Part shown: positions 50,521 to 64,000 of the stretch, in pieces
Position numbering within the stretch: the stretch's first letter is position 1
Layout of the letters: each line of letters opens with the position of its first letter
Position numbers and translations under genes: made by a program
NCBI GenBank assembly: GCA_041484665.1
Contig: JBGPIA010000005.1
Location: 160,001-224,000 of the forward strand
Reading direction: 5' to 3'
Origin: Candidatus Krumholzibacteriia bacterium
GTDB lineage: Bacteria > Krumholzibacteriota > Krumholzibacteriia > JAJRXK01
DNA length: 64,000 nt
Notes under the pieces: model-generated
Seen by the model: the letters and a program-made list of their open reading frames with translations, nothing else
Told to the model about the DNA's origin: nothing
The model's database searches: none

Positions 50521-53037
50521 ATGAGCGACGAGACCGATCGCACCCCGCCGGCGCAGAGCCAGGCGGAGCGTCGCGCGAAGCTGCCGCTGCTGCCGCTGCG
50601 CGACGTGGTCATCTTTCCCGGCGCGGTCCTGCCGTTGTTGGTGGGACGGGAGAAGTCGATCCGCGCGCTGAAGGTGGCCTCCGAGGGCGACAAGCTGCTG
50701 GTGGTGACCGCCCAGAAGGAGGCGGACGTCGCCGACCCCACCGAGGAGGACCTCTACCGCATCGGCACCATCGTGCGCGTGCACCAGATCGCGCGCCTGC
50801 CGGACGGCACCACGCGCATCCTGATCGAGGGGCTCGGCCGCGCCCGCATCCGCCGCTTCTTCGACCGCTCCGAATACCTCGAGGTGCGCGTCGAGGAGCT
50901 GGAGACCGCCTTGGCCGAGCAGAGCACCGAGTTCGAGGCGCTCTCGCGCCAGCTGCTGGACTCCTTCACCGAATACGTGGGGCTCAACCGTCGCCTGACC
51001 GATGAGGTGGCGGTCAGCGTGGGCCACATCGAGGACGTCGAGCGCCGCGTGGACACGATGTGCGCCTACCTGATGGCGCGCGTCAGCAGCAAGCAGCGCC
51101 TGCTGGCCGAGACCGACCTGATGCGCCGCATGCGCGAGCTGGCCCACGTGCTGCACCGCGAGGTGGAGATCCTGCGCGTCGAGCAGCGCATCGAGGGCGA
51201 GGTCAAGAAGCAGGTCGAGAAGGGGCAGAAGGAGTTCTACCTCAACGAGCAGCTGCGGGCCATCCGCAAGGAGCTCGGCTACGGCGCCGACGACGACGAC
51301 GAGATCGAAGAGCTGGTGCGCAAGATCGAGGACACCGGCATGACCGACGAGGCGCGCGACGTCGCCCTCAAGGAGGTGGGGCGCCTGGCGAAGATGGCGC
51401 CCATGTCACCCGAGTCCTCGGTCATCCGCAGCTACCTCGAGGTGCTGCTGGCGCTGCCGTGGAAGGCGCGCACCGACGACCAGCTCGACACGCGCCGCGT
51501 CGCCAAGCAGCTCGACCTGGACCACTTCGGCCTGGAGAAGGTCAAGGAGCGCATCCTGGAGTTCCTGAGCGTGGTGAAGCTCAGCGGACGGCTGCAGGGC
51601 TCGATCCTCTGCCTGGTGGGGCCGCCGGGCACCGGCAAGACGAGCCTGGGCCGCTCCGTGGCCGAGGCGATGGGGCGCAAGTTCGTGCGCGTCTCCTTGG
51701 GCGGGGTGCGCGACGAGGCGGAGATCCGCGGGCACCGGCGCACCTACATCGGTAGCCGCCCGGGACGGATCCTGGAGGGGATGCGCAAGGCCGCCACGCG
51801 CAATCCGGTGTTCCTGCTGGACGAGATCGACAAGCTGGGGGCCGATTTCCGCGGCGACCCCAGCGCGGCGCTGCTGGAGGTGCTTGACCCCGAGCAGAAC
51901 CGCAACTACAGCGACCACTTCCTCGAGATCCCGTTCGATCTCTCCGAGGTCTTCTTCATCTGCACGGCGAACGTGCTGCACCAGATTCCGTCCGCGCTGG
52001 AGGATCGCATGGAGATCATCCGGCTGCCGGGGTATCTCGATCACGAGAAGGTGGCCATCGCGCGCGACTTCCTGCAGCCCAAGCTGCTGCGCAACCACGG
52101 CCTGGAGCGCGCGCGCTTCTCCATCAGCGACCAGGCCATGCTGGACGTCATCAACCTCTACACGCGCGAAGCAGGCGTGCGCGACCAGGAGCGGCAGCTG
52201 GCCAAGGTCTGCCGCAAGGTCGCGCGCGCAAAGGCCGAGCGGCGCCGCGTGCCGCGCACGATCCATCGCGGCAACCTGCACCGTTTCCTGGGGCCGCCCA
52301 AGTACCTGCACCGCCGCGTCGACCAGGAGCCCGAGGTGGGCGTCGTCACCGGCCTGGCCTGGACGCCGGTGGGGGGCGAGATCCTCGAGATGGAGGTCGC
52401 GATCCTGCCCGGCACCGGCAAGCTGGTACTGACGGGCAATCTCAAGGAGGTCATGCGCGAGAGCGCGCGCGCGGCGCTGAGCTACGCGCGCAGCATCGTG
52501 CCGTCTTCGGCCGAGCGCCTGGCCAAGAGCGACATCCACATCCACGTGCCCGAGGGAGCGGTGCCCAAGGACGGCCCCAGCGCAGGCATCGCCATGGCGA
52601 CGGCGCTGGTGTCGGTGCTGACCGGACGCAAGGTCCGCCGCGACGTCGCCATGACGGGCGAGATCACGCTGCGCGGGCGCGTGCTCCCCATCGGCGGGCT
52701 GCCCGAGAAGGCGGTGGCGGCGCAGCGGGCGGGCTGCACGCACATCATCATTCCCAAGGAGAACGACAAGGACTACCAGGAGCTCCCGCGCGACGTGCAG
52801 AAGGGCTTGCGCTGGCAGCAGGTCAGCCGCGTGGAGGAAGTCCTCAAGCTGGCGCTCTTGCCCGAGGATGCGGAGACGCGCATCCCGCCGCAGGAGCTGC
52901 TCGAGCCCGCTCGCGAGCTCAAGGAGCACCTCGAGAAGCTGCCGCTGCTTCCCGAGCGCTCCGATCGCCCTCCGCGCCCCAAGACCGGGCCCCCGGGGCA
53001 GGCGCTGGACATTCCGCCCAAGGGCACGCCGCACTGA
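50521..53037 (+). CDS. lon: Lon protease
   Basis: LPLRD, GPPGTGKTS, IRGHRRTYIG, PKDGPSAG, MTGEITLRG. Confidence 0.98.
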   Translation: MSDETDRTPPAQSQAERRAKLPLLPLRDVVIFPGAVLPLLVGREKSIRALKVASEGDKLLVVTAQKEADVADPTEEDLYRIGTIVRVHQIARLPDGTTRILIEGLGRARIRRFFDRSEYLEVRVEELETALAEQSTEFEALSRQLLDSFTEYVGLNRRLTDEVAVSVGHIEDVERRVDTMCAYLMARVSSKQRLLAETDLMRRMRELAHVLHREVEILRVEQRIEGEVKKQVEKGQKEFYLNEQLRAIRKELGYGADDDDEIEELVRKIEDTGMTDEARDVALKEVGRLAKMAPMSPESSVIRSYLEVLLALPWKARTDDQLDTRRVAKQLDLDHFGLEKVKERILEFLSVVKLSGRLQGSILCLVGPPGTGKTSLGRSVAEAMGRKFVRVSLGGVRDEAEIRGHRRTYIGSRPGRILEGMRKAATRNPVFLLDEIDKLGADFRGDPSAALLEVLDPEQNRNYSDHFLEIPFDLSEVFFICTANVLHQIPSALEDRMEIIRLPGYLDHEKVAIARDFLQPKLLRNHGLERARFSISDQAMLDVINLYTREAGVRDQERQLAKVCRKVARAKAERRRVPRTIHRGNLHRFLGPPKYLHRRVDQEPEVGVVTGLAWTPVGGEILEMEVAILPGTGKLVLTGNLKEVMRESARAALSYARSIVPSSAERLAKSDIHIHVPEGAVPKDGPSAGIAMATALVSVLTGRKVRRDVAMTGEITLRGRVLPIGGLPEKAVAAQRAGCTHIIIPKENDKDYQELPRDVQKGLRWQQVSRVEEVLKLALLPEDAETRIPPQELLEPARELKEHLEKLPLLPERSDRPPRPKTGPPGQALDIPPKGTPH

Positions 53038-54119
53038 TGGCATCCCACCAGGTCGAGCTGGTGACGCTCGCCCCGACCCTGCGGGAGTGCCCGGCCGACC
53101 CGATTCCCGAGATCGCCTTCAGCGGGCGCTCCAACGTCGGCAAGTCCTCGCTGCTCAACCTGCTGGTGGGCCGCAAGCGCCTTGCCCACACGAGCGCGGC
53201 GCCGGGCAAGACGCAGACCCTGGTCTACTACAAGGTCGACGAGCGCTGGCACCTGGTGGACATGCCCGGGTACGGCTACGCGCGCGTGCCTACGGAAGTG
53301 CGTCGGCGCTGGACCGCCGCCGTCAGCGAGTACCTGCACGGACGCGAGCAGCTGGCGGGCCTGATCCAACTGGTGGACATCCGGGTCGGCTTCACTCCGG
53401 ACGACCGCTCGCGATTGCACGAGCTGGTCGCCCTCGACAAGCCGTTTTGCCTGGCCATGACGAAGGCCGACAAGGTGCCGCGTGCCCGGCAGGAGGAGAT
53501 CGTGGCCGGCCATCTGGCCGGGCTGAGCCTGGCACCCGACACGGGGGTGATTCTCACCTCGGCCCTGCACCACTACGGGCAGCGAGAGCTTTGGGCGTGG
53601 ATCGGCCAGGTGCTGGCGGGGCGCATCGGCCGCCCGCTTGTCCTGTCGCCTGCGCGCACGGAGGCCGTCCAACCGGCAGAGCCCCGCCCAACCCCCGCGA
53701 GACAGCCGCACCCAGGGCGCGCGCCGGGCCGCCCGCCTGGCAAGCGATTCGCGCAGCGAGTCCCGGCGCCGCGGCCGGCGGGCCGAGCCAAGGCCTCCCC
53801 AGCCCGGTCGGGCACGCAGCGATCGACCTCCGGCGGCGGCAAGGCATCGCCCATTCACCCCGGCCCGCAGCGCTTGAGGGCAGCCTACGGCAAGGGCTCC
53901 CCGGGACGGTCCGGCCCGCCGCGCTCCAGGACCGCTGACGGGAGGGGCTCGCCTTCTCGGCCGGGGCCACCGGGCCCCAAGGCAGCGTACGGGAAGGGCT
54001 CTCCGGGTCGGCCGGGGCCACGGGGCCCCAAGGCAGCCTACGGCAAGGGGTCCCCGGGTCGGTCGGGGCCGCCGCGCAGCGGCCGCGCCCGCAGCAAGGG
54101 CTCCAAAAGGTCGCGTTGA
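53037..54119 (+). CDS. engB: Ribosome-biogenesis GTPase EngB/YihA/YsxC with a long basic repeat tail
   Basis: GRSNVGKSS, PGKT, DMPGYG, TKADK; start overlaps the lon stop; about 165-aa R/P/G/S-rich extension. Confidence 0.93.
   Translation: MASHQVELVTLAPTLRECPADPIPEIAFSGRSNVGKSSLLNLLVGRKRLAHTSAAPGKTQTLVYYKVDERWHLVDMPGYGYARVPTEVRRRWTAAVSEYLHGREQLAGLIQLVDIRVGFTPDDRSRLHELVALDKPFCLAMTKADKVPRARQEEIVAGHLAGLSLAPDTGVILTSALHHYGQRELWAWIGQVLAGRIGRPLVLSPARTEAVQPAEPRPTPARQPHPGRAPGRPPGKRFAQRVPAPRPAGRAKASPARSGTQRSTSGGGKASPIHPGPQRLRAAYGKGSPGRSGPPRSRTADGRGSPSRPGPPGPKAAYGKGSPGRPGPRGPKAAYGKGSPGRSGPPRSGRARSKGSKRSR
53880..54083 (+). repeat. 51-nt (17-aa) tandem repeat x4 in the EngB tail
   Basis: AAYGKGSPGRSGPPRSR / TADGRGSPSRPGPPGPK / AAYGKGSPGRPGPRGPK / AAYGKGSPGRSGPPRSG at 53880, 53931, 53982, 54033. 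Confidence 0.92.
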
Positions 54120-54875: not shown

Positions 54876-54893
54876 GTGGGCCCGGAGAGTTGG

Positions 54894-56210
54894 ATGGCGA
54901 CGCGATCGGTCTGGGCGGTGGTCGGGGGTCAGTGGGGAGACGAGGGGAAGGGCAAGGTCGTCGACCGGCTCACCGACGGCTTCGACCTGGTCATCCGCCC
55001 CCAAGGGGGAGCGAACGCGGGGCACACGATCAAGCTCGGCGACGAGAAGTATGTCCTGCACCTGCTGCCCAGCGGCGTGATGCGCGAAGGGGTCCGCTCG
55101 CTGCTGGGCTCCGGAATGGTCGTCGACCTCGGCAGCCTGCTCAAGGAGATCGACGACCTGGCCGAGCGTGGCATCGATGTGAGCGGCAGGCTGTTCCTCG
55201 CCAGCTCCGCCAACCTGCTGCTGCCCTACCACAAGCGCCTGGACGAGCTGCGCGAGAAGACGCTCTCGCGCAAAAGCATTGGCACCACCGGGCGCGGTAT
55301 CGGTCCGTGCTACGAGGACAAGATGGCGCGCACGGGGCTGCGCGCCGGCGATCTGCTGCGCCCGCGCGACGCGCTGCGCCGCCTGGTGATCGACCGGGTG
55401 CTCGCTGCGAACAAGCTCCTGGCGGGGCGCTACGATGCCCCGGCCATGGCGAGCGAGGCGGTGGCCGAGGAGCTGCTGGGCCAGGCGGAGCGCGGTCGCT
55501 CGCTGGTTGTGAATGGCTACGAATTCCTGCGCCCGGTGCGCGAGGGCAAGTGGCGCACGCTGCTGGAGGGCGCCCAGGGCAGCCTGCTGGACGTGGACCA
55601 CGGCACCTACCCCTACGTGACCAGCAGCAATTGCACGATCGGCGGGGCGCTGACCGGCTCGGGGCTTCCGGCGCGCTGCCTGGAGCGCGTGATCGGCGTG
55701 TACAAGGCCTACGCCACGCGCGTGGGCAACGGGCCGTTCCCCACCGAGCTGTTCGCCGACGAGGCCGAGGACCTCCGTGCGCTGGGCGCGGAATTCGGCG
55801 CGACGACCGGGCGCCCGCGGCGCTGCGGATGGTTCGACGCGGCAGCCGCTCGGTACGCCGCCGAGATCAACGGCATCGACGAGGTCGCCCTGACCAAGCT
55901 GGACGTGCTCACCGGCTCGGAGATCGTGCGCATCGGCGTCGGCTACGAGCTGGCCGGTAAGGCACTCCACGAGTACCCCGTCGATATCGACCGTCTGATG
56001 CGCTGCAAGCCGGTCTACCAGGAGATGCCCGGGTGGAAGGAGACGATCACCGAGGCACGTCGCTTCGACCATCTCCCCATCAACGCCCAGCGCTACGTCG
56101 CCGAGCTGGAGGCTCGCATCGGCGCGCCGGTGCGCTACATCTCCACCGGAGCGCGGCGCGAGGCCTGGATCGACCGGCAGGCGGCCGAGCGCAAGGCGAC
56201 GACGGCGTAG
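54894..56210 (+). CDS. purA: Adenylosuccinate synthetase
   Basis: QWGDEGKGK, GGANAGHT, IGTTGRGIGP, EGAQG, TTGRPRRCGW, TKLDVL. Confidence 0.98.
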   Translation: MATRSVWAVVGGQWGDEGKGKVVDRLTDGFDLVIRPQGGANAGHTIKLGDEKYVLHLLPSGVMREGVRSLLGSGMVVDLGSLLKEIDDLAERGIDVSGRLFLASSANLLLPYHKRLDELREKTLSRKSIGTTGRGIGPCYEDKMARTGLRAGDLLRPRDALRRLVIDRVLAANKLLAGRYDAPAMASEAVAEELLGQAERGRSLVVNGYEFLRPVREGKWRTLLEGAQGSLLDVDHGTYPYVTSSNCTIGGALTGSGLPARCLERVIGVYKAYATRVGNGPFPTELFADEAEDLRALGAEFGATTGRPRRCGWFDAAAARYAAEINGIDEVALTKLDVLTGSEIVRIGVGYELAGKALHEYPVDIDRLMRCKPVYQEMPGWKETITEARRFDHLPINAQRYVAELEARIGAPVRYISTGARREAWIDRQAAERKATTA

Positions 56211-56307: not shown

Positions 56308-58473
56308 TCAAAGGCGCCGGTCGCCCGCCAGCCGCACCAGCGCGAAGTGCACGTCAGTCGCCGGATGGAACGCGACGTTCTCGCTCGCGCGCGCTTGCAG
56401 CGCCGCCGGGACATCGCCCGCCGCGATCACGTCCCAGATCACCCACTCCACGCCCTCGTGCTGCAGGCGCTGCACGTCGAGGTCGGTTGGCGAGGCGGAC
56501 AAGATTTCGATGTGCCTCTGGTCCAGTGGCAGCGCGAGGACGCCTCCCATCAACGTCCCCATGCGGCTCCAGGGCGAGCGGGCGATGTGTCGCGCCTGCA
56601 GGAACTCCGCACCACCCTTGCCCTGCGACATACCGGCGAACAGCGCGTCGACCGTGGGAAGAAAGCGCTTCTGTGCCGTGATGGGATCGCGCACGCGCTG
56701 GGCCTGCCATTGCGCCCGGGCGGCGGTGGCCGACTCCCACGTTCCCACGGCGGCCAGAGCCACGCCCCACACCGCCACCAGGCCCACGGTCCACGCCCGC
56801 GCGCGTTTGCCTTCCGGGCGCAACTGGTCGTGCAAGAGCGCCGCCAGCGCCGGAAGCCCCAGGCCGTGCAGCCAGAGCGTGAAGCGCGCCCACCAGGCGG
56901 CTGGCTGGGCGAACAACGCCAGCAGCCCGAACACCGTCAGCAGCGCCAGCGACGATAGGCGTGTCGCGCGCGCGGCACCTGTCCGCCACAGAGCCACGAG
57001 GGCGACCAACCCGCCGGCCGGCCACAGCCAGCCGAGCCCTCCGGTGGCGTAATGGCTGCGGATCGGAGCGTCGGTCTGTAGCCACGACCAGGGCATGCGC
57101 GCGGGCCTGGGCACGTGGCGCAGCCAATCGGGCATGTCCTGGTCGGTCATGAGCCGCGGGTCGTAGCCCGCGATCAGCACGCGCGCCCCGAAGCGCACCT
57201 GGACCGGATACAGGGGGTTGCCCGTATGGAGGAGGTCACGCGCGTACCAGTATCCACCGACGAGCACTGCAGCCAGAATGCCCAGGCTGCACCAGGCTGC
57301 AACGCGCCGGGGCGTCGCGCGCGCGCGTTGGGTGGAGGTACGCGGAGAGCCAGGGCGCTGCGCGTCCACGCGCGGCGGCTCAGCGCGATGGCTTCCGGTG
57401 TGCCGTGCCGTTGCGCGCTGCGTGCTCGCCCGCCGCGCGATCGCCAGCGGCAGCACGAGCACCGCCAGGATCAGGAAGAACGGCAGGCCCAAACCCTTTA
57501 CGCCCAGCATCAACCCGCAGCACAGGCCCCACAGCACGGCGGTCAGCCTGACTGGCGGCCCGTCGCCCGCGATCAACAGGGTCGAGGCGGCCAGCGCCGC
57601 GAATACGGCACACGCGAACGCCGGCTCGACGTAACACGTGGCGCTCAGAATCGCGAATGTGGGAACCCACGCGATCGCGCCGGCGGCGACCCAGCGCCAC
57701 GCGCCGCGCGCGCCCAGGCTCTGCGCCAACACCGCCAGCGCCACGGCGCCCAGCGGCCAGAACCACAGGCTGCTGGCGTCGACCAGGCGGCTCGTCCCAG
57801 TCAGCCGGTGCACGAGGAAGCTCACGACCTCCGCCGCCATCGGATAGCCATTGGCGAAGGGGATGTCGGTGAGCCCCGGGATCCAGCACACGCGGCCCGC
57901 GGCCGCCCAGCCGTTCATTGCGGGCAGATGGTAGTAGAGACCGTCCCAGTCGTAGTCGGGGCGCTGCCAGGTCAGCGCCCACAGCTGGATCCAGGTCCAG
58001 GCTGCCCAACCGCAGGCAACCAGCGCGGCGGCGACCGACCAGCGTGAGACGGCGGCTGGCGTGGCGGCTGGCGTGGCGGCTTGCGTGGCGGCGGGCGTTG
58101 CCGGGCCGATCACTCTGGCGGGCGTCGCAGCGGCGGTCGCCGGGGTGGTCGCGGTGCTCGTCGCCGTAGCCGTGCGGAACGCTCGCGCGAATGCGACAGC
58201 CAGGCACGCCGCCGCGAGCACGATGCCGCCCGCAAGAGGGCGGGAGAGCGCGATGCCCATTGCCGCGGTGCCCAGGCACAGCGCCTGGACCAGGGCGTGC
58301 AGGGCGGCCAGGAAGACGAAGCTCGCGACGAGGCCCCAGCGATTGCGCTGCGGTGCTGCGGCGCCCGCGCTCACCATCGCCGCCGGCTCTTCATGGCCGC
58401 CGCCGCGAGCTGCAACCGCCGCGCTGCCATCGCCACGCGCTGCCGCCACCGCGAGCTGCCACCACCCGACCAT
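56308..58473 (-). CDS. Polytopic membrane protein, probable GT-C-fold glycosyltransferase
   Basis: WDGLYYHLP loop after the first TM block, YP..E, GxKxxG, WY.RD...TGNPLYP motifs; many TM segments; start uncertain. Confidence 0.6.
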   Translation of the reverse strand: MVGWWQLAVAAARGDGSAAVAARGGGHEEPAAMVSAGAAAPQRNRWGLVASFVFLAALHALVQALCLGTAAMGIALSRPLAGGIVLAAACLAVAFARAFRTATATSTATTPATAAATPARVIGPATPAATQAATPAATPAAVSRWSVAAALVACGWAAWTWIQLWALTWQRPDYDWDGLYYHLPAMNGWAAAGRVCWIPGLTDIPFANGYPMAAEVVSFLVHRLTGTSRLVDASSLWFWPLGAVALAVLAQSLGARGAWRWVAAGAIAWVPTFAILSATCYVEPAFACAVFAALAASTLLIAGDGPPVRLTAVLWGLCCGLMLGVKGLGLPFFLILAVLVLPLAIARRASTQRATARHTGSHRAEPPRVDAQRPGSPRTSTQRARATPRRVAAWCSLGILAAVLVGGYWYARDLLHTGNPLYPVQVRFGARVLIAGYDPRLMTDQDMPDWLRHVPRPARMPWSWLQTDAPIRSHYATGGLGWLWPAGGLVALVALWRTGAARATRLSSLALLTVFGLLALFAQPAAWWARFTLWLHGLGLPALAALLHDQLRPEGKRARAWTVGLVAVWGVALAAVGTWESATAARAQWQAQRVRDPITAQKRFLPTVDALFAGMSQGKGGAEFLQARHIARSPWSRMGTLMGGVLALPLDQRHIEILSASPTDLDVQRLQHEGVEWVIWDVIAAGDVPAALQARASENVAFHPATDVHFALVRLAGDRRL

Positions 58474-58483
58474 GGCCGTCCGC

Positions 58484-60205
58484 TCACCATTCCTGGAAGA
58501 TCTTCAGCGTGATCGCCCACTGGTCGTAGAAGTCGGTGGTGGAGACGTCGTAGCGCAGAGACACGCCGCGATCGTGGCGCAGGTACAGGGTCCCGGCGGC
58601 ATTGTACGAGTGGCTGTTGTAGCCGACGAGCGCTGTCGACGGGCCGACCAACATGTAGGCCACCGTGCCGGTCTCGAAGCCCGCCCCGAGCACGAGCTTG
58701 CGGTGCTGGTTGTAGAGCAGGCCGGCGCCCGCCGAGCGCGAGGTCGTCCTGCCGGGATAGCCGAGGTCGATGCGGCCCGAAGCGGCCAAGCTCCACGGTC
58801 CGCCGAGTCCGTAGCGCAGTCCCACCCCAAAGCCGTCGGAGCGGTTCTCGGCCTTGCTCTGGACGTGCGTGTAGCCGGCGTTCAGCGTGAGTCGGTCGGC
58901 CCTCAGCATTCCGTGCATGATTCCGGCATCGAAGCGCCAGTCGGGGAAGATCACCTCGCCGGTGCCGGTGCTGAAGCCCAGCGAGGCGCTGGTGTCCCGC
59001 CGCAGGAAACGCGTGTAGGACAACCCAGCGCCGACCCCCTCGTCGCCGAAGCGGGCCGCCCGGCCCACATCCACGCGCCAGCCGTCCACGAAGGCGCGCG
59101 CGAGAGTGAAGCTGGCGAACTCCGCGTCGGAGGTGCCCAGGCCGGCGGTGTAGTGGCCGTAGCTTGCGCCAAGCTCCAGAAGGCGCGTCCATGCCACATC
59201 CGTCGCGCGCGCCGTCGAGGCGCCGCCGGCGATCAGTGCCAGCACGGCCGCGCCCGCCGTGGCGGCCACGCCCGCCATGCCGGCCGTGCCGGCCGTGCCT
59301 GCCGTGCCTGGCGTGCGCGCTGTGCGCGTCTTGCTTGCCTTAGCCGCCTTGCCCGCGGCCTTCGTTCCGTTGGCCCAGGTGCGCGGACGGCGCGGCCAGG
59401 TCGCCTGATGGTAGGGGAGCGTGCGCCAGCTCATCGCCCAGGCGTACAGCCCGACGATCAAGCCCACGTCCAGGGGCAGGCCGAACATCCAGAACAAGAG
59501 AGGCATTACGAGCAGCGAGCCGTGGTGGATCAGGATGGCGTGCCCCAGGTACTGCATCGGGATGAACAGCGTCAGATGCAGCATCACCAACAGCACCAGC
59601 GCTAGTTTCTTCTTGCGGCTGAAGTCCAGCGTGAAATAGGTCGCGCCCAACAGCACCGGCACCAGGCCCGTCAGGAACATCCCGGCGATGAGCACCACGT
59701 GGGTGTAGCCGGCGATGTCGTAGGGGAAGGCCCCGGGGAACAGCCAGAAGAATACCAACGAGCTGGTCTGCACCAACGCCGCCAAGCGCAGCAGGTAGAC
59801 CAACGGCAGCGCACGGCGGCGCGGCAGCAGGAAGCTGACCAGGAACGCGATGGCGGTGACGGCTATGGTCGTGAGCCAGATGGTGCGCGACAGCGGTGCC
59901 GCCGTGGCCGCGACCATGGGGAACTCGAGATGGAAGCGGTGGAGCACCGTGTAGCGCACCGGCTGGACTGAGGCGGTGAGGCCCAGCGCGCCTCGCCAGA
60001 ACTCGAGGATGGCCATCCAGAGTCGGCTGACCTGGTTGATCGCGAGGAACCACGCGACCGCGAGCGCCACTCCCAGCGTCGCCGACAGTGCGATGCGCGC
60101 CGCGCGCAGGTCCAGGGTGAGGATCGCGCGGTGCGGCACGATCACGCCGCCACCATGCCCGCGCTCGCGCAGCGCGGTCTCGATGGGATCGACGTGCCGA
60201 CTCAT
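58484..60205 (-). CDS. Multi-TM membrane protein fused in frame to a YaiO-like outer-membrane beta-barrel
   Basis: N-terminal about 265 aa with several TM helices; basic linker; signal-like AVLALIAGGASTARA; C-terminal alternating beta strands (RFGDEG, FPDWRFD) ending in terminal W. Confidence 0.65.
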   Translation of the reverse strand: MSRHVDPIETALRERGHGGGVIVPHRAILTLDLRAARIALSATLGVALAVAWFLAINQVSRLWMAILEFWRGALGLTASVQPVRYTVLHRFHLEFPMVAATAAPLSRTIWLTTIAVTAIAFLVSFLLPRRRALPLVYLLRLAALVQTSSLVFFWLFPGAFPYDIAGYTHVVLIAGMFLTGLVPVLLGATYFTLDFSRKKKLALVLLVMLHLTLFIPMQYLGHAILIHHGSLLVMPLLFWMFGLPLDVGLIVGLYAWAMSWRTLPYHQATWPRRPRTWANGTKAAGKAAKASKTRTARTPGTAGTAGTAGMAGVAATAGAAVLALIAGGASTARATDVAWTRLLELGASYGHYTAGLGTSDAEFASFTLARAFVDGWRVDVGRAARFGDEGVGAGLSYTRFLRRDTSASLGFSTGTGEVIFPDWRFDAGIMHGMLRADRLTLNAGYTHVQSKAENRSDGFGVGLRYGLGGPWSLAASGRIDLGYPGRTTSRSAGAGLLYNQHRKLVLGAGFETGTVAYMLVGPSTALVGYNSHSYNAAGTLYLRHDRGVSLRYDVSTTDFYDQWAITLKIFQEW

Positions 60206-61377
60206 GACGTCACCACCCCGCCCTTGCCCGCCCAGGCGCTGCCATGGAGCACGGAGCCCAGCTGGATCTCCAGCGTCTCGGCCCGCAAGGTCGTCGGGCG
60301 CTGCGGCGTTCCCACGACGCAGCCACGGGCCAGCTTGAGGTGCCGCTCCGCCAGCGCCGGTCCGTGGATGACGCAGCCCTCGCGCACGATCAGATTGCGC
60401 TCGCTCACCACGCTGCCCTCAACCTGCACGCCGGCCTCCAACACGACATTGTGGCGGCCCTTGAGGCTGCGCCGGCACAACGATCCGGCGCCCACCACGA
60501 GCTCTCCAATCACCACCAGATCGAAGTCCACAAGCGACCCCGGCGGAATCTTCAGGTCCCCGCGCACGAGCGCGCGCCCGACGCTGAAGTCTGCCAAGTG
60601 CCGCAGCTTTTGGGGGTGGAGCGGCCGCAACGAGGAGGCGTCGAGCAAGGCGGCGCCTGGTGCTGTGGGTTCGGCGCCGTGGGGCGCGGTGTCGCCCTGC
60701 GGCGAGGGCGCGGTGGCGCCCTGCGGTGCGGGCGCCGCGGTGGCGAGCACCTCGCCAAAGCGGATGAGCGGAGCATTCAGGCGATCGAAGCGGCAATCGC
60801 CCAGGACGGTCAGGGCCACGTCTGCCGATGCGCGGCCGTGCAGATGGCAGCGCGGGCCAACGTGCAGCTCGCGCCCCGCGTGGATCCAGCGCATGACCGA
60901 GGAGTCCGGCCCCAGGTTGACGTCGCCTTCGGCGAGGACGGCGCGGTAGCGGCTCTTCGCCGCGCCCATGAAGGCGCCGGCCGCGTACAGCTCGCGGGTG
61001 TACGTCGCCGCTGTCATCGGGTGGAGGTCGGCCATGGAGAGCAGGATTCGGTCGCAGCGCCGCGCGCTTTCCTCCTGGGGAGCGAGCGTCATGGCGTAGC
61101 CGCCCGGCATGATGGTGAACGGCTCGACGTTGCCCAGCCGGCCCGACAACGGCTTGCCGGTCTCCTGCGCCGAGCGCAGCAGGGGCGCGAAACGCTGCGG
61201 CAGCAGCCCGCGGAAGCCGTTGGCCAGGTGGCGGACGTCCACGCGCGAGTCGGCCGAGACCGACAGGGGCTGGACGTCGCGGCGCCGCCTTATCTCCAGC
61301 AGCCCAGGCAGGAACGCCAGCGCGAACAGCGCGACCGTCAGCGCGAAAAACAGGGCGTAGACCAGCGGAATGCTCAT
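60202..61377 (-). CDS. Membrane-anchored beta-helix (bactofilin/polymer-forming-like) protein
   Basis: N-terminal TM ending FLPGLLE; repeated (V/L)xGxLxV..G..VxGxV units; ATGA coupling at both ends. Confidence 0.6.
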   Translation of the reverse strand: MSIPLVYALFFALTVALFALAFLPGLLEIRRRRDVQPLSVSADSRVDVRHLANGFRGLLPQRFAPLLRSAQETGKPLSGRLGNVEPFTIMPGGYAMTLAPQEESARRCDRILLSMADLHPMTAATYTRELYAAGAFMGAAKSRYRAVLAEGDVNLGPDSSVMRWIHAGRELHVGPRCHLHGRASADVALTVLGDCRFDRLNAPLIRFGEVLATAAPAPQGATAPSPQGDTAPHGAEPTAPGAALLDASSLRPLHPQKLRHLADFSVGRALVRGDLKIPPGSLVDFDLVVIGELVVGAGSLCRRSLKGRHNVVLEAGVQVEGSVVSERNLIVREGCVIHGPALAERHLKLARGCVVGTPQRPTTLRAETLEIQLGSVLHGSAWAGKGGVVTS

Positions 61378-63350
61378 CGGCGGTGTCCGTTGTGCTCGGT
61401 CTTGTGCCAGCGCAGCTCGCGGCGCGGATCGACGGCGATCATCTGGCGCAGCGTCTCGCGCGAGACGGCCAGGATCGTCACCAGGAAGCCCAGCAGGATG
61501 AACGGGATGAGCCGGGCGCGCTCGCGCGTGCGGTCCAGGTGAGTGGCTGCGGCCACCTCGAAGAACGTAGCGAAGTTGCCGATCGTGGAGTACGAGGCCA
61601 CCAACAGGATGATGATCAGCCCGGGCTTGTTGACGCCCAAGTACCAGAGCGACAGCGCGATGGCCCACCCCAGCACAAGCAGGGGCGACATGAAGAACAC
61701 GCCCAGCAGCAGTAGCCCGTCGAGCCTCTCCCGCACGCGCGTGCGACGGTTGAAGATCAGGCGCCGGGTGTAGCGCCACAGGCACTGGTTGTGGCCGCGC
61801 GACCAGCGGACCACCTGGCGCACCCGCTCGTCCCAGCTCTCCGGGACCTCTTCGTAGCACTCCGAGCGATTCTGGTAGACCGTCTTCCAGCCGGCCAGCA
61901 GCAGCCGGTAGGTGGCGTCGGTGTCCTCGGCCAGGCTGTCGACGCTCCAGCCGCCGACGCTCTCCAGGGCGCCCTTGCGCACGCCGCCGACCGTGCCGCC
62001 GTACTGGGGGACCAGGCGCAGGTTCATGCGCGCCTGCTGGTCGACCTGGTAGCCGCCCGAGCGCTCAAGATCAATCAGGCGCGTCAGCACGTTGGCGCCT
62101 GCGTTGGACGGCACCACGCGCCCCATGACCGCGCCGACCTCCGGATCGAAGAACGGCGCCACCAGCTGCCGGATCAGCCCCTTGCCGGGTACGTAGTCGG
62201 CGTCGAACACCAGAACGATCTCGGTGTCGACGAACTGCATGGCATCGCGCAGTGCCGCTCCCTTGCCCGCCTTCCCGCTCGTGCGGTGGTAGGGGCGGAT
62301 CACGTCGGGGTGCTGGCTCGCGTACGCGTCGATGATCTCTGCGGTCTTGTCCGTGGAGCGGTCGTCGACCGGGATGATCTTCAAGCGCTCGATGGGATAG
62401 TCGACGATCAGCAGCGCATCCAGCATGCGCGCGATGACCGCCTCTTCGTTGTGGGCGGGGACCAGCACGGTGATGCTCGGCCAGTCCGCGCTGTCCACGT
62501 CGAGGTAGGGGAAGCGCTGGCGCCCGAAGAGCCGATTGAGCGTGAAGGCGTAGTGGCGTAGTAAGTAGAGGCAGACCAGCCCGACGATGACGTAGAGCAG
62601 GATCACCTGCGCGAAGATGTGCGGAGGGTAAGCCGAGAGAGGGATGGGGGCGGAGGAGGCGGCGGAGGGGACCTCCGAGGGGACTGCGGAGTGGACCGCG
62701 GAGTGGACTGTGGAGGGGGCGATGCGCGTTACGGTGTGGGCGGCGGGGCGCGCAGCGGCGTGCGGTGCGTCGGGCGGGTGGGCGTGGGTCGCTGCTCCGG
62801 TCACAGCTTGGGTCGGGCTGTGGGCTGCCGTGGGCCCGGTGGCGTGGGCGGAAACGTGCGCGGCCCCTTGTGCGGCCGCGGCGCCGGCTTTGAGGGGTGC
62901 CGTGGTGGCATGTGGCACGGGTTGTACGGCCGGTCGGCCGGCACGGTGGGCCGTCGCGGGAGGCGCCGGATGGGTTGCGGCGTGGGCTGCGTTGTGGGCT
63001 ACGGCGTGGGCTACGACGGGAACCGCCGCGTGGGTTGCGGCGTGGGCTGCAGCAGGATGGGCTGTGGTGCGGTCTGCAGTATGGGCTGGGGCGGGTGGGG
63101 CGGCGTCGGGTGCCGCGTGTTCCGCTACCGTGGTTGCCGCACGGGCGGCAGCAGCGGTGGCGCGAGGTGTGGCAGCGGCCGCTACCGCAAGCGGCGCGAG
63201 GCCGGCGACCAACAGGAAGGCGCGCGCAGCGGCAACGAGGGCCGCCAGCGCGATCGACAGGGACGTCGGCGCCTTGGAGGGGAAGAACGGGGAGTGCCGT
63301 GGGGCAACGAGCAGGCTTGACGCCGACTCCCCAGGCCTGTGGCCGGTCAA
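61374..63350 (-). CDS. Processive GT2 glycosyltransferase (cellulose/PNAG synthase-like) with a His/Ala-rich N-terminal extension
   Basis: VPAHNEE, DDRSTD, GKG.AL, FDADY, LAEDTD, QVVRW; C-terminal TM helices; TTG 63350 after GAGGT is the inferred start. Confidence 0.85.
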   Translation of the reverse strand: MTGHRPGESASSLLVAPRHSPFFPSKAPTSLSIALAALVAAARAFLLVAGLAPLAVAAAATPRATAAAARAATTVAEHAAPDAAPPAPAHTADRTTAHPAAAHAATHAAVPVVAHAVAHNAAHAATHPAPPATAHRAGRPAVQPVPHATTAPLKAGAAAAQGAAHVSAHATGPTAAHSPTQAVTGAATHAHPPDAPHAAARPAAHTVTRIAPSTVHSAVHSAVPSEVPSAASSAPIPLSAYPPHIFAQVILLYVIVGLVCLYLLRHYAFTLNRLFGRQRFPYLDVDSADWPSITVLVPAHNEEAVIARMLDALLIVDYPIERLKIIPVDDRSTDKTAEIIDAYASQHPDVIRPYHRTSGKAGKGAALRDAMQFVDTEIVLVFDADYVPGKGLIRQLVAPFFDPEVGAVMGRVVPSNAGANVLTRLIDLERSGGYQVDQQARMNLRLVPQYGGTVGGVRKGALESVGGWSVDSLAEDTDATYRLLLAGWKTVYQNRSECYEEVPESWDERVRQVVRWSRGHNQCLWRYTRRLIFNRRTRVRERLDGLLLLGVFFMSPLLVLGWAIALSLWYLGVNKPGLIIILLVASYSTIGNFATFFEVAAATHLDRTRERARLIPFILLGFLVTILAVSRETLRQMIAVDPRRELRWHKTEHNGHRR

Positions 63351-63556
63351 CCAGTCACCTCGGACGATCCCGTCCGCCCCAGAACCCTGTGAGTATACCG
63401 GATCGGCCAGGCGTGTGGTGAACGAACTGCGCACGGGGGCTGGGGCAGCGGCGGTCTGGCCATCGGGCCGCGGGCTGGCGATCAGCTCGCGAGCAAGCGG
63501 GTGGGCGAGGAGTCGGCCGCGCACGGGGCGCCGGTGCCGCGCCGGAGGATGCCAGC

Positions 63557-63585
63557 TTGTCGGGGGGAGAGGGCGTGCCTACACT
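63557..63585 (+). promoter_or_regulatory. Sigma70-type promoter upstream of the tRNA-Lys fragment
   Basis: TTGTCG, 17 nt spacer, TACACT. Confidence 0.55.
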
Positions 63586-63671
63586 CGGGCGGCCTGCGGG
63601 CGGAGGCCGTGTTCGCTCGCCTCCCGCGATGCGGCAGGTGCGGCGGATGGGTCGTGTCTGCAAGTTGGGAT

Positions 63672-63713
63672 GGGCCGCTAGCTCATCTGGTAGAGCAACG
63701 GACTTTTAATCCG
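63672..63713 (+). pseudogene. 5' half of tRNA-Lys(UUU), probable attL junction
   Basis: GGGCCGC-TA-GCTC-ATCTGGTA-GAGC-A-ACGGA-CTTTTAA-TCCG; tRNA similarity then stops, with no GTTCG T loop and no CCA. Confidence 0.85.
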
Positions 63714-63877
63714 AAAACTGCGCCTCCACGGCCCCGTTCCTAAGCTCCACTCCGAGCAATTCTTCAACAGCGCGACTTGCGCGTTTGTGCCTTGTTTTGT
63801 AGGATTTCCTGCGCGACGCACACCTTGTCAGCGCGTCGCAGCCAGGGTCAGCCTGGGTCAGGCGTGCGCGGCGCAAT

Positions 63878-63901
63878 CGGAACCTGAAACGGAACCTGAA
63901 A
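63878..63901 (+). repeat. 12-bp tandem direct repeat, putative integrase arm-type sites
   Basis: CGGAACCTGAAA twice (63878-63889, 63890-63901). Confidence 0.7.
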
Positions 63902-63922
63902 AACGCCCTGGAGGGTGGGGAG

Positions 63923-64000
63923 ATGCGCTTCTCAGACCGCGGCATAGCGGCGCTGAAGCCACGGGTGCGGGCGTATGACGTGCGGGAAGCACGCGGGTTC
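63923..64000 (+). CDS. N-terminus of a P4-like tyrosine integrase (arm-DNA-binding domain), truncated by window edge
   Basis: MRFSDRGIAALKPRVRAYDVREARGF resembles arm-binding integrase N-termini; GGAG upstream; next to the tRNA fragment; only 26 codons visible. Confidence 0.65.
   Translation, partial: MRFSDRGIAALKPRVRAYDVREARGF

Follow-up and report, generated by a model that had tools for sequence, protein, structure and literature searches.

The window, by which we mean the whole 64,000-nucleotide stretch that was analysed (G000:C5:160001-224000), lies in an assembly of 5.45 Mb in 54 contigs, with a genome completeness of 93.65% and 47 tRNA genes. Near its right end is a purA-like gene (54876..56210, plus strand; the name is our assumption from sequence likeness), which stands outside the island described below and serves as the synteny anchor of the native tRNA-Lys(UUU) locus. 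A purA homologue lies 5' of tRNA-Lys(UUU) on the same strand in 12/15 regions from 13 relatives (12/13 genomes), and purA is upstream here as well, so we take the C5 side to be the native locus. Downstream of purA is a predicted host sigma-70-type tRNA-Lys(UUU) promoter (63557..63585, plus strand; -35 TTGTCG, 17-bp spacer, -10 TACACT). It scores 10.9 with a matrix trained on this genome's tRNA leaders, a score reached by 0/300 shuffles, and TTGnnn-17-TACACT precedes tRNA-Lys(UUU) in 5/8 same-family loci, which bears out the promoter that the original prediction had placed at these positions. Native synteny and the conserved promoter are both retained on the C5 side of the island.

Two features of the flanking DNA are recorded here in passing. 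Between purA and the tRNA promoter is a minus-strand block (56308-63524) that ends in a family 2 glycosyltransferase, the ORF of which has a long Ala/His/Pro-rich N-terminal stretch and an uncertain start; the four proteins of this block gave no tblastn match in the 15 regions from relatives. On the other side of purA, the GTPase encoded after lon (53037-54119) carries a long C-terminal extension in which an AAYGKGSP-containing motif occurs three times.

The tRNA gene behind the promoter is present only as its 5' half: positions 1-42 of tRNA-Lys(UUU) lie at 63672-63713 and are followed by unrelated sequence, as had been proposed from the letters alone. Together with one leader base, they make up the attL identity block (63671..63713, 43 bp, plus strand), whose copy lies at G000:C40:3715-3757. 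ARAGORN calls no tRNA at the half in the window. The half is nevertheless not a chance match, because it is identical to the intact gene at 42/42 bases (BLAST E 2e-17). The predicted host promoter now drives only this displaced half and faces the integrase gene. A pseudo-acceptor stem in the attL transcript was also considered, and it does fold, but with a z-score of -0.65 we dismissed it as chance.

Within the block is the anticodon loop CTTTTAA (63703..63709, plus strand), the putative 7-bp strand-exchange overlap, with the anticodon stem on both sides. Identity between C5 and C40 stops 4 bases beyond this loop, and in the ordinary att sites of the integrase clade it likewise stops at or just beyond the loop. 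From this end point, and from the type of site described in the consulted part of PMC8371274, we infer that exchange takes place in the 7-bp loop, which would put the cleavage sites there too.

Two further features lie between the att block and the integrase gene. The first is a candidate integrase promoter, TTGCGC-17-TAGGAT (63777..63805, plus strand), which is weak when taken alone (98/300 shuffles score as high). However, TTGnnn-16/18-TAnnnT occurs in the same zone before the integrase gene in 51/78 clade members vs 14% in shuffles, so this candidate sits at the position usual in its clade. The second is a 28-bp block of putative arm-type integrase binding sites (63874..63901, plus strand), which contains two 12-bp direct repeats (63878-63901); these are the tandem repeats that had been noticed ahead of the integrase. 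The block has an identical counterpart (28/28) at C40:3613-3640, some 109 bp ahead of the anticodon loop in the intact tRNA gene. Related elements carry similar 11-12-bp tandem repeats at both ends, and the arm repeats probably bind the integrase.

The integrase gene, int, begins 210 bp past the att block and is whole. It occupies 63923..64000 in the window and continues on the plus strand to G000:C5:225149, so the integrase-like start that had been noted at 63923, an ATG, opens a full ORF of 408 aa; this ORF was missing from the list available to the original prediction because the window ends inside it. Three Pfam domains were found: Phage_integrase (PF00589, E 2.6e-25, 89.6 bits vs a cut-off of 27.1), Arm-DNA-bind_3 (PF13356, E 2.4e-19, 69.7 bits), and Phage_int_M (PF22022). 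The proposed check for the tyrosine recombinase catalytic residues found R244, K271, H339, R342, H365, and Y374, to which we assign catalytic roles from general knowledge of the family. The first four are kept in 91/91 aligned clade proteins, H365 in 90, and Y374 in 89, and both the ORF and these residues are intact. Among solved structures, the best matches are to P4/CP4-like arm-binding domains, XerD, and lambda Int. The XerC, XerD, and XerA models score 43-48 bits vs cut-offs of 220-335, so int is not of Xer type. By its domains and residues, int is a lambda/P4-type tyrosine integrase with an arm-binding domain, and it is predicted to carry out the recombination.

The original prediction asked for the other att site, and it exists: the 43-bp block is found exactly once more, at C40:3715-3757, where it forms the start of an intact tRNA-Lys(UUU) gene (C40:3716-3789, plus strand). 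Counting copies, as had also been suggested, this is the sole UUU gene among the 47 tRNAs, with no second UUU copy in the 93.65%-complete assembly, and there is one tRNA-Lys(CUU) gene, on C8. No other 16-mer of the tRNA-Lys(UUU) 3' half occurs anywhere in the assembly, and no tRNA was called on C19 or on the C5 tail. The claim that the tRNA is not restored is therefore wrong, the intact gene simply being on another contig, and the same gene refutes the suggestion that this copy had been inactivated. On its 5' side are an intact AlpA-family gene, whose product may be the excisionase, an AAA_15 ATPase gene, and the same 28-bp arm block that precedes int. The intact tRNA-Lys(UUU) (L003:3716-3792, G000:C40) has no encoded CCA end, in contrast to nine same-family relatives, and its acceptor stem differs. 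A 13-base motif common to the two far regions was discarded, as it also occurs twice in unrelated places.

The two junctions lie on different contigs, and the path between them can be reconstructed through repeats. One end of a repeated element closes C5 and its other end opens C19, with a unique 8-bp duplication across the break; among 6 x 8 end pairs there were 3 exact 8-bp flank matches, each unique, and C5 to C19 is one of them. From its terminal bases and the 8-bp duplication, we take this element to be IS66-like. The end of C19 joins the start of C40 through a 345-bp repeat with a 6-bp target duplication, and another copy of this repeat bridges C23 and C8, where the duplication is 5 bp long. 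The path C5(+), C19(+), C40(+) comes to 104,707 bases plus the unassembled IS body, or about 107 kb; this size is a lower bound (at least 104.7 kb), in which two short target duplications across repeats link the three contigs. The 345-bp repeat has TGT...ACA ends and three copies (G000:C31:2590-2934, the C19-C40 join, and the C23-C8 join), two of which have 5-6-bp target duplications and lie inside the two lysine-tRNA islands. It is probably a non-autonomous transposon.

GC on C19 is 0.62-0.69 vs mostly near 0.70 in the genome, and the Pfam matches on C19 are to accessory or mobile functions. Defence-like and mobile cargo includes a CapP-like peptidase with an HTH partner, a TIR protein, an OLD-type ATPase with UvrD, HerA-like ATPases, Vsr, a C5 methylase, ArdC, PcfJ, RadC, IS21, a DDE transposase, and two more tyrosine recombinases, alongside some transport and enzyme genes. 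Among the ORFs scanned with Pfam and NCBIfam, many of which match nothing, there was no relaxase or clear conjugation module and no capsid, terminase, or tail gene.

Several parts of the cargo deserve separate mention. Behind int, a CapP-like M78 peptidase and its HTH partner are followed by a TIR-domain gene and a weak Sir2-like fragment (L001:4241-8302; G000:C5:226241-230302), a cluster which looks like a regulated defence cassette, possibly broken. On C19, adjoining OLD-type ATPase/TOPRIM and UvrD helicase genes (L243:11426-15120) form a pair that is presumably Gabija-like. The same contig carries two 495-aa tyrosine recombinase genes (L243:4376-5863 and L244:10703-12190), which suggest nested elements, and two large HerA/DUF87-like ATPases in unnamed clusters with weak VirB4/TrwB likeness (L246:4557-6563 and L242:10295-12490), which could be a divergent transfer or defence module.

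We conclude that the window very probably ends in the left junction (attL) of a real tRNA island with a tyrosine integrase, integrated in reverse orientation and belonging to a known rare kind. At the level of sequence, the two junctions, the arm block common to them, a whole integrase gene, a single UUU gene, the native position of the locus, and the path through the contigs are established. The proposed mechanism is as follows. The attP would begin with the far arm, followed by the tRNA 5' half, the loop, the integrase arm, and int, and recombination would occur in the 7-bp anticodon loop of tRNA-Lys(UUU) with the usual direction reversed. Integration would then leave the host promoter and host 5' half adjoining int, as seen in the window, while the element's own 5' half would join the host 3' half at C40, rebuilding an intact tRNA without its native promoter. 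The rebuilt gene would be transcribed at a low level from element DNA, and the layout would have arisen when an ancestor in the same integrase clade, an ordinary 3'-restoring element, flipped its orientation.

Because the host promoter stays on the C5 side, the rebuilt tRNA is cut off from its conserved native promoter, and the leader shared between the C40 tRNA and the host copy is a single base. The original prediction offered as one possibility that the element supplies both a new 5' half and a new promoter at its far end, and reviews lead one to expect an element-borne promoter in islands of this class. The 5' half is there, in the intact C40 gene, but the promoter is not apparent: the best trained-matrix scores upstream of the C40 tRNA are 5.0 and 4.7 (134/300 shuffles score as high), and no TTGnnn-16/18-TAnnnT occurs within 3 kb upstream. 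However, many of the genome's genuine tRNA genes get low scores in the trained-matrix scan too, so the lack of a match is weak evidence. Strict promoter and terminator scans of both junctions gave 0 sites each and missed the host promoter too, so the strict promoter scan is too stringent here.

What could transcribe the rebuilt gene? The best-placed candidate promoter is TGGGAA-17-TAGCAA, a weak match 25 nt 5' of the C40 tRNA. Alternatively, since no terminator was found between the alpA and ATPase genes and the tRNA, read-through from these co-directional genes is possible. Low-level transcription may well be enough, because AAA is the minority lysine codon (2,211 AAA vs 21,343 AAG codons in 1,951 long ORFs); a UUU anticodon is required for reading AAA, by wobble. 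We also looked at folding behind the tRNA in ordinary far ends, using 13 of them (10 of 15 fetched loci plus L043, L044, and L239, leaving out one locus at a contig end and four without arm repeats). In 12/13, the DNA directly behind the tRNA folds at -14 to -24 kcal/mol, in most cases into a terminator-like hairpin. The far end on C40 folds at only -9 to -10 kcal/mol, as one would expect if transcription has to pass through it. Ordinary far ends showed no conserved outward promoter, with scattered matches in 5/27 ordinary tRNA flanks scanned.

A reading we find possible but doubtful is that the junctions are real and the island is dead or composite, fixed in place by insertion sequences and nested elements, with the tRNA expressed only by stray read-through or supplemented by an unassembled second copy. 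The IS21, the IS66-like break, the DDE transposase, the 345-bp repeat, and the two further tyrosine recombinases inside all speak for it, as do the absence of a promoter match before the rebuilt tRNA, the absence of a relaxase match, and a genome that is 93.65% complete. However, the int ORF and its catalytic residues are intact, as is the AlpA-family gene, and the att and arm blocks are identical at 43/43 and 28/28 bases. This alternative differs from a functioning reverse-orientation island in present activity only.

We classified the DNA before the integrase gene in relatives drawn from scans of genomes, viral contigs, and metagenomes together with genome searches; 94 proteins remained once tblastn scores below 200 bits and duplicates were removed. 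A reversed tRNA 3' fragment lies about 170-360 bp before the integrase gene, i.e., the ordinary attR, in 72 of the 94. A forward 5' half lies there in only one, the integrase of this island. The remainder comprise one with a longer reversed match, one with a forward intact tRNA, eight with nothing, and 11 with too little DNA. The clade targets anticodon loops of Arg, Lys, Thr, and other tRNAs, and two relatives enter the same CTTTTAA loop in the ordinary direction. Searches of 401, 56, 83, and 301 genomes added no further 5'-type member. The integrase is also isolated: no homologue above 54% identity appeared among 8,000 scored candidates, homologues on viral contigs reached at most 33%, phage records were all below 60% (best rows about 30%), and in its own phylum only 9/208 genomes had a match at 1e-60.

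The closest relative with genomic context is in the same genome. This integrase (C23:3761-4915, 53-56% identity) is that of an ordinary element in tRNA-Lys(CUU), about 21 kb long, whose arm repeat is almost identical to the one here. The element spans G000:C23:3761-5170 (L240) and G000:C8:1-16065 (L239), and carries AlpA, an AAA_25 ATPase, and an Mrr-family nuclease; given how closely the arm repeats agree, cross-talk between the two integrases is possible. Three trees pair int with this element inside the 3'-type group, with support of 97, 96, and 98. All three were quick searches; the FastTree run warned of long branches meeting at the sister pair, and one tree flagged the odd composition of this int. 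An AU test did not reject holding 27 chosen 3'-type rows together without this int (p 0.32). In both types, the tRNA-derived piece of attP is on the far-arm side of the core; the differing feature is tRNA direction only. The spacing from arm to loop is about 109 here, 103 in the C23 paralogue, and 83-100 in most others.

That the nearest relative of int belongs to an ordinary element elsewhere in this genome suggests a lone orientation flip, though the AU test does not prove the nesting. We consider it probable, with some reserve, that the orientation of this integrase is a derived flip from a 3'-restoring ancestor of the same clade. The competing view is that no recent flip took place and that int represents an old, unsampled reverse-orientation lineage, sister to the 3'-type clade and not derived from it. 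Its long lonely branch, with the same ceiling of 54% identity, and the AU result fit this view, but the three trees (support 96-98) and the near-identity of the arm repeats join int to the same-genome element, and we think an old lineage rather unlikely.

A more specific version of the flip is conceivable, although we regard it as quite unlikely in full: a lone flip in an otherwise uniformly 3'-restoring clade, its unflipped sister sitting at the chromosome's other lysine tRNA gene, in which a bare tRNA 5' half was grafted onto the old far arm without promoter capture, leaving the only AAA-reading tRNA of the cell dependent on island transcription. The route might have been an Int-mediated inversion, followed by conversion via stem sequences common to the 5' half and the reversed 3' half. 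Transcription would then come from read-through of alpA and the defence ATPase gene, or from a far-end promoter of the circle type. If this is true, the promoterless flip would tie an essential tRNA to island regulation and guard the island end against deletion. If the rebuilt tRNA truly has no promoter of its own, an essential tRNA would be running on island transcription. A literature search turned up no description of such a flip inside a single integrase clade, and the part of PMC12884075 consulted held nothing relevant. Williams 2002, Zhao and Williams 2002, and Mantri and Williams 2004 could cover it, so we do not claim a flip within a clade as unreported.

Whatever its history, the island forms a natural experiment together with its relative: the two lysine tRNA genes of one genome are occupied by elements of opposite type, one 5' and one ordinary 3', whose integrases are related (53-56% identity) and whose arm repeats are almost the same. 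With this pair one can test what determines the orientation in which a tyrosine integrase uses its target, and how the attP of a reverse-type element could arise without being lethal to a host that has a single gene for the tRNA.

Public sequence data contain the stretch, or part of it, in 24 sediment metagenome runs, four of which were examined (X1, X4, X13, and X14); no RNA dataset is among the 24. In X1, a possible source, the 43-bp core forms its own contig and the four arms have depths of 10.6, 10.4, 12.1, and 11.9. All four arms are also present in X4, which is from another study. The original prediction proposed a search for empty sites, and X13 and X14 were candidates to carry them, but both proved simply low-coverage, and neither an empty site nor an excised circle was seen in the runs examined. 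The public contigs break at the 43-bp core, so they do not phase the arms.

This matters for one alternative, misassembly across the 43-bp repeat, under which the chromosome would hold an intact gene at its native promoter (attB) and the element would be an excised circle or episome (attP). The unphased public contigs leave room for it, and depths of 10.4-12.1 fit a one-copy episome equally well. However, the overlaps between contig ends here measure 139-141 bases. They imply that the assembly words were well over 43 bases long and hence, we infer, that phasing was done at read level, and we judge misassembly very unlikely. Even if it had occurred, attP carries the 5' half under either phasing, so the class assignment stands.

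Layouts of this kind have been catalogued before. In Table 1 of Islander (Hudson, Lau and Williams, PMC4383910), 159 of 3,919 islands, or about 4%, have a 5' tDNA fragment, and this island adds one case; the parts of the Islander text consulted give no account of promoters or of the origin of the class. As the Islander excerpt describes that class for the anticodon-centred site A, the features in common are an onboard tyrosine integrase, a crossover zone at the anticodon loop, a 5' fragment upstream and an intact gene downstream in the same orientation, and a reconstructed size within 2-200 kb. Here, positions 1-42 are at attL, the intact gene is at the far end, orientation is consistent along the path, and int lies inside the island and is neither of Xer nor of integron type. 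The one departure is from the rule, in the same excerpt, that both ends be on the same replicon: the ends of this island are on different contigs, and only the reconstructed path brings them onto one replicon. Zhao and Williams 2002 (J Bacteriol 184:859), judged by its title and a citing sentence in PMC6563490, describes an element in bacteria for which the recombination partner is the 5' part of a tRNA gene, the usual orientation being reversed, which is the same reversed use of the 5' part as here.

Other systems share some of these features. The pTN3-like integrases use the tRNA 5' half, a choice that, according to the excerpt of PMC8371274, is rare in bacteria; the consulted part of PMC5495485 gives 41 bp in common and a tRNA that is cut off from its promoter. 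Archaeal pTN3, as that part presents it, thus resembles this island in having the tRNA 5' half as att (41 bp there, 43 here) and a rebuilt gene without its own promoter. There, integration splits the integrase gene, and the tRNA is said in the same excerpt to run from the integrase promoter. In contrast, int here is whole, at the other end, and of the bacterial arm-binding type, and att does not lie inside a split integrase gene as in the pTN3/SSV type.

ICEKp1, ICEclc, and ICEEc1, which are P4-like (Arm-DNA-bind_3), have the host tRNA promoter driving int in the available part of PMC13023037, and the tRNA promoter here reads toward int in the same way. The original remark that the tRNA promoter now points into the integrase is thus true, but it is not special, as ordinary 3'-type ICEs do likewise on the evidence of that excerpt and this int has a candidate promoter of its own. 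Those ICEs, again as excerpted, restore the 3' end, giving an intact tRNA beside int, whereas here the intact tRNA is at the far end. They also have, in the same part of the source, a known far-end promoter, which would be a natural source of transcription for the rebuilt tRNA here, but none was detected in this far end or in the 3'-type far ends scanned.

The last comparison is with the tRNA-dependent lysogeny of actinobacteriophages such as Fionnbharth, in which, as the consulted part of PMC10865867 has it, a core of about 10 bp is used and integration destroys the host gene, the loss being made good by a separate tRNA of the phage; the likeness to that account is that a single tRNA-Lys(UUU) gene is targeted and its supply depends on element DNA, and the difference is that the gene here is a hybrid rebuilt at the junction. 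That the host tRNA was destroyed in this way and that the C40 gene is the element's own whole tRNA-Lys(UUU) is highly improbable: phages do target the same isotype by that route in the excerpt of PMC10865867, and the C40 gene lacks the encoded CCA of its same-family relatives, but the shared block is 43 bp and not about 10, the orphan host 3' half expected beside a separate tRNA is nowhere in the assembly, the intact gene stands at the far junction with arm repeats directly 5' of it at element-end spacing, and its 5' half equals the host half, whereas the Fionnbharth tRNA is, per the same excerpt, not closely related to that of its host.

Among the relatives, G008 has a tRNA-Lys(UUU) 3' fragment at a contig end (the end of L124; G008:C29:64782-64828), and G007 has two copies near contig ends (L122:6-81 and L123:92-167), so tRNA-Lys(UUU) seems to be an ordinary integration target in this family too.
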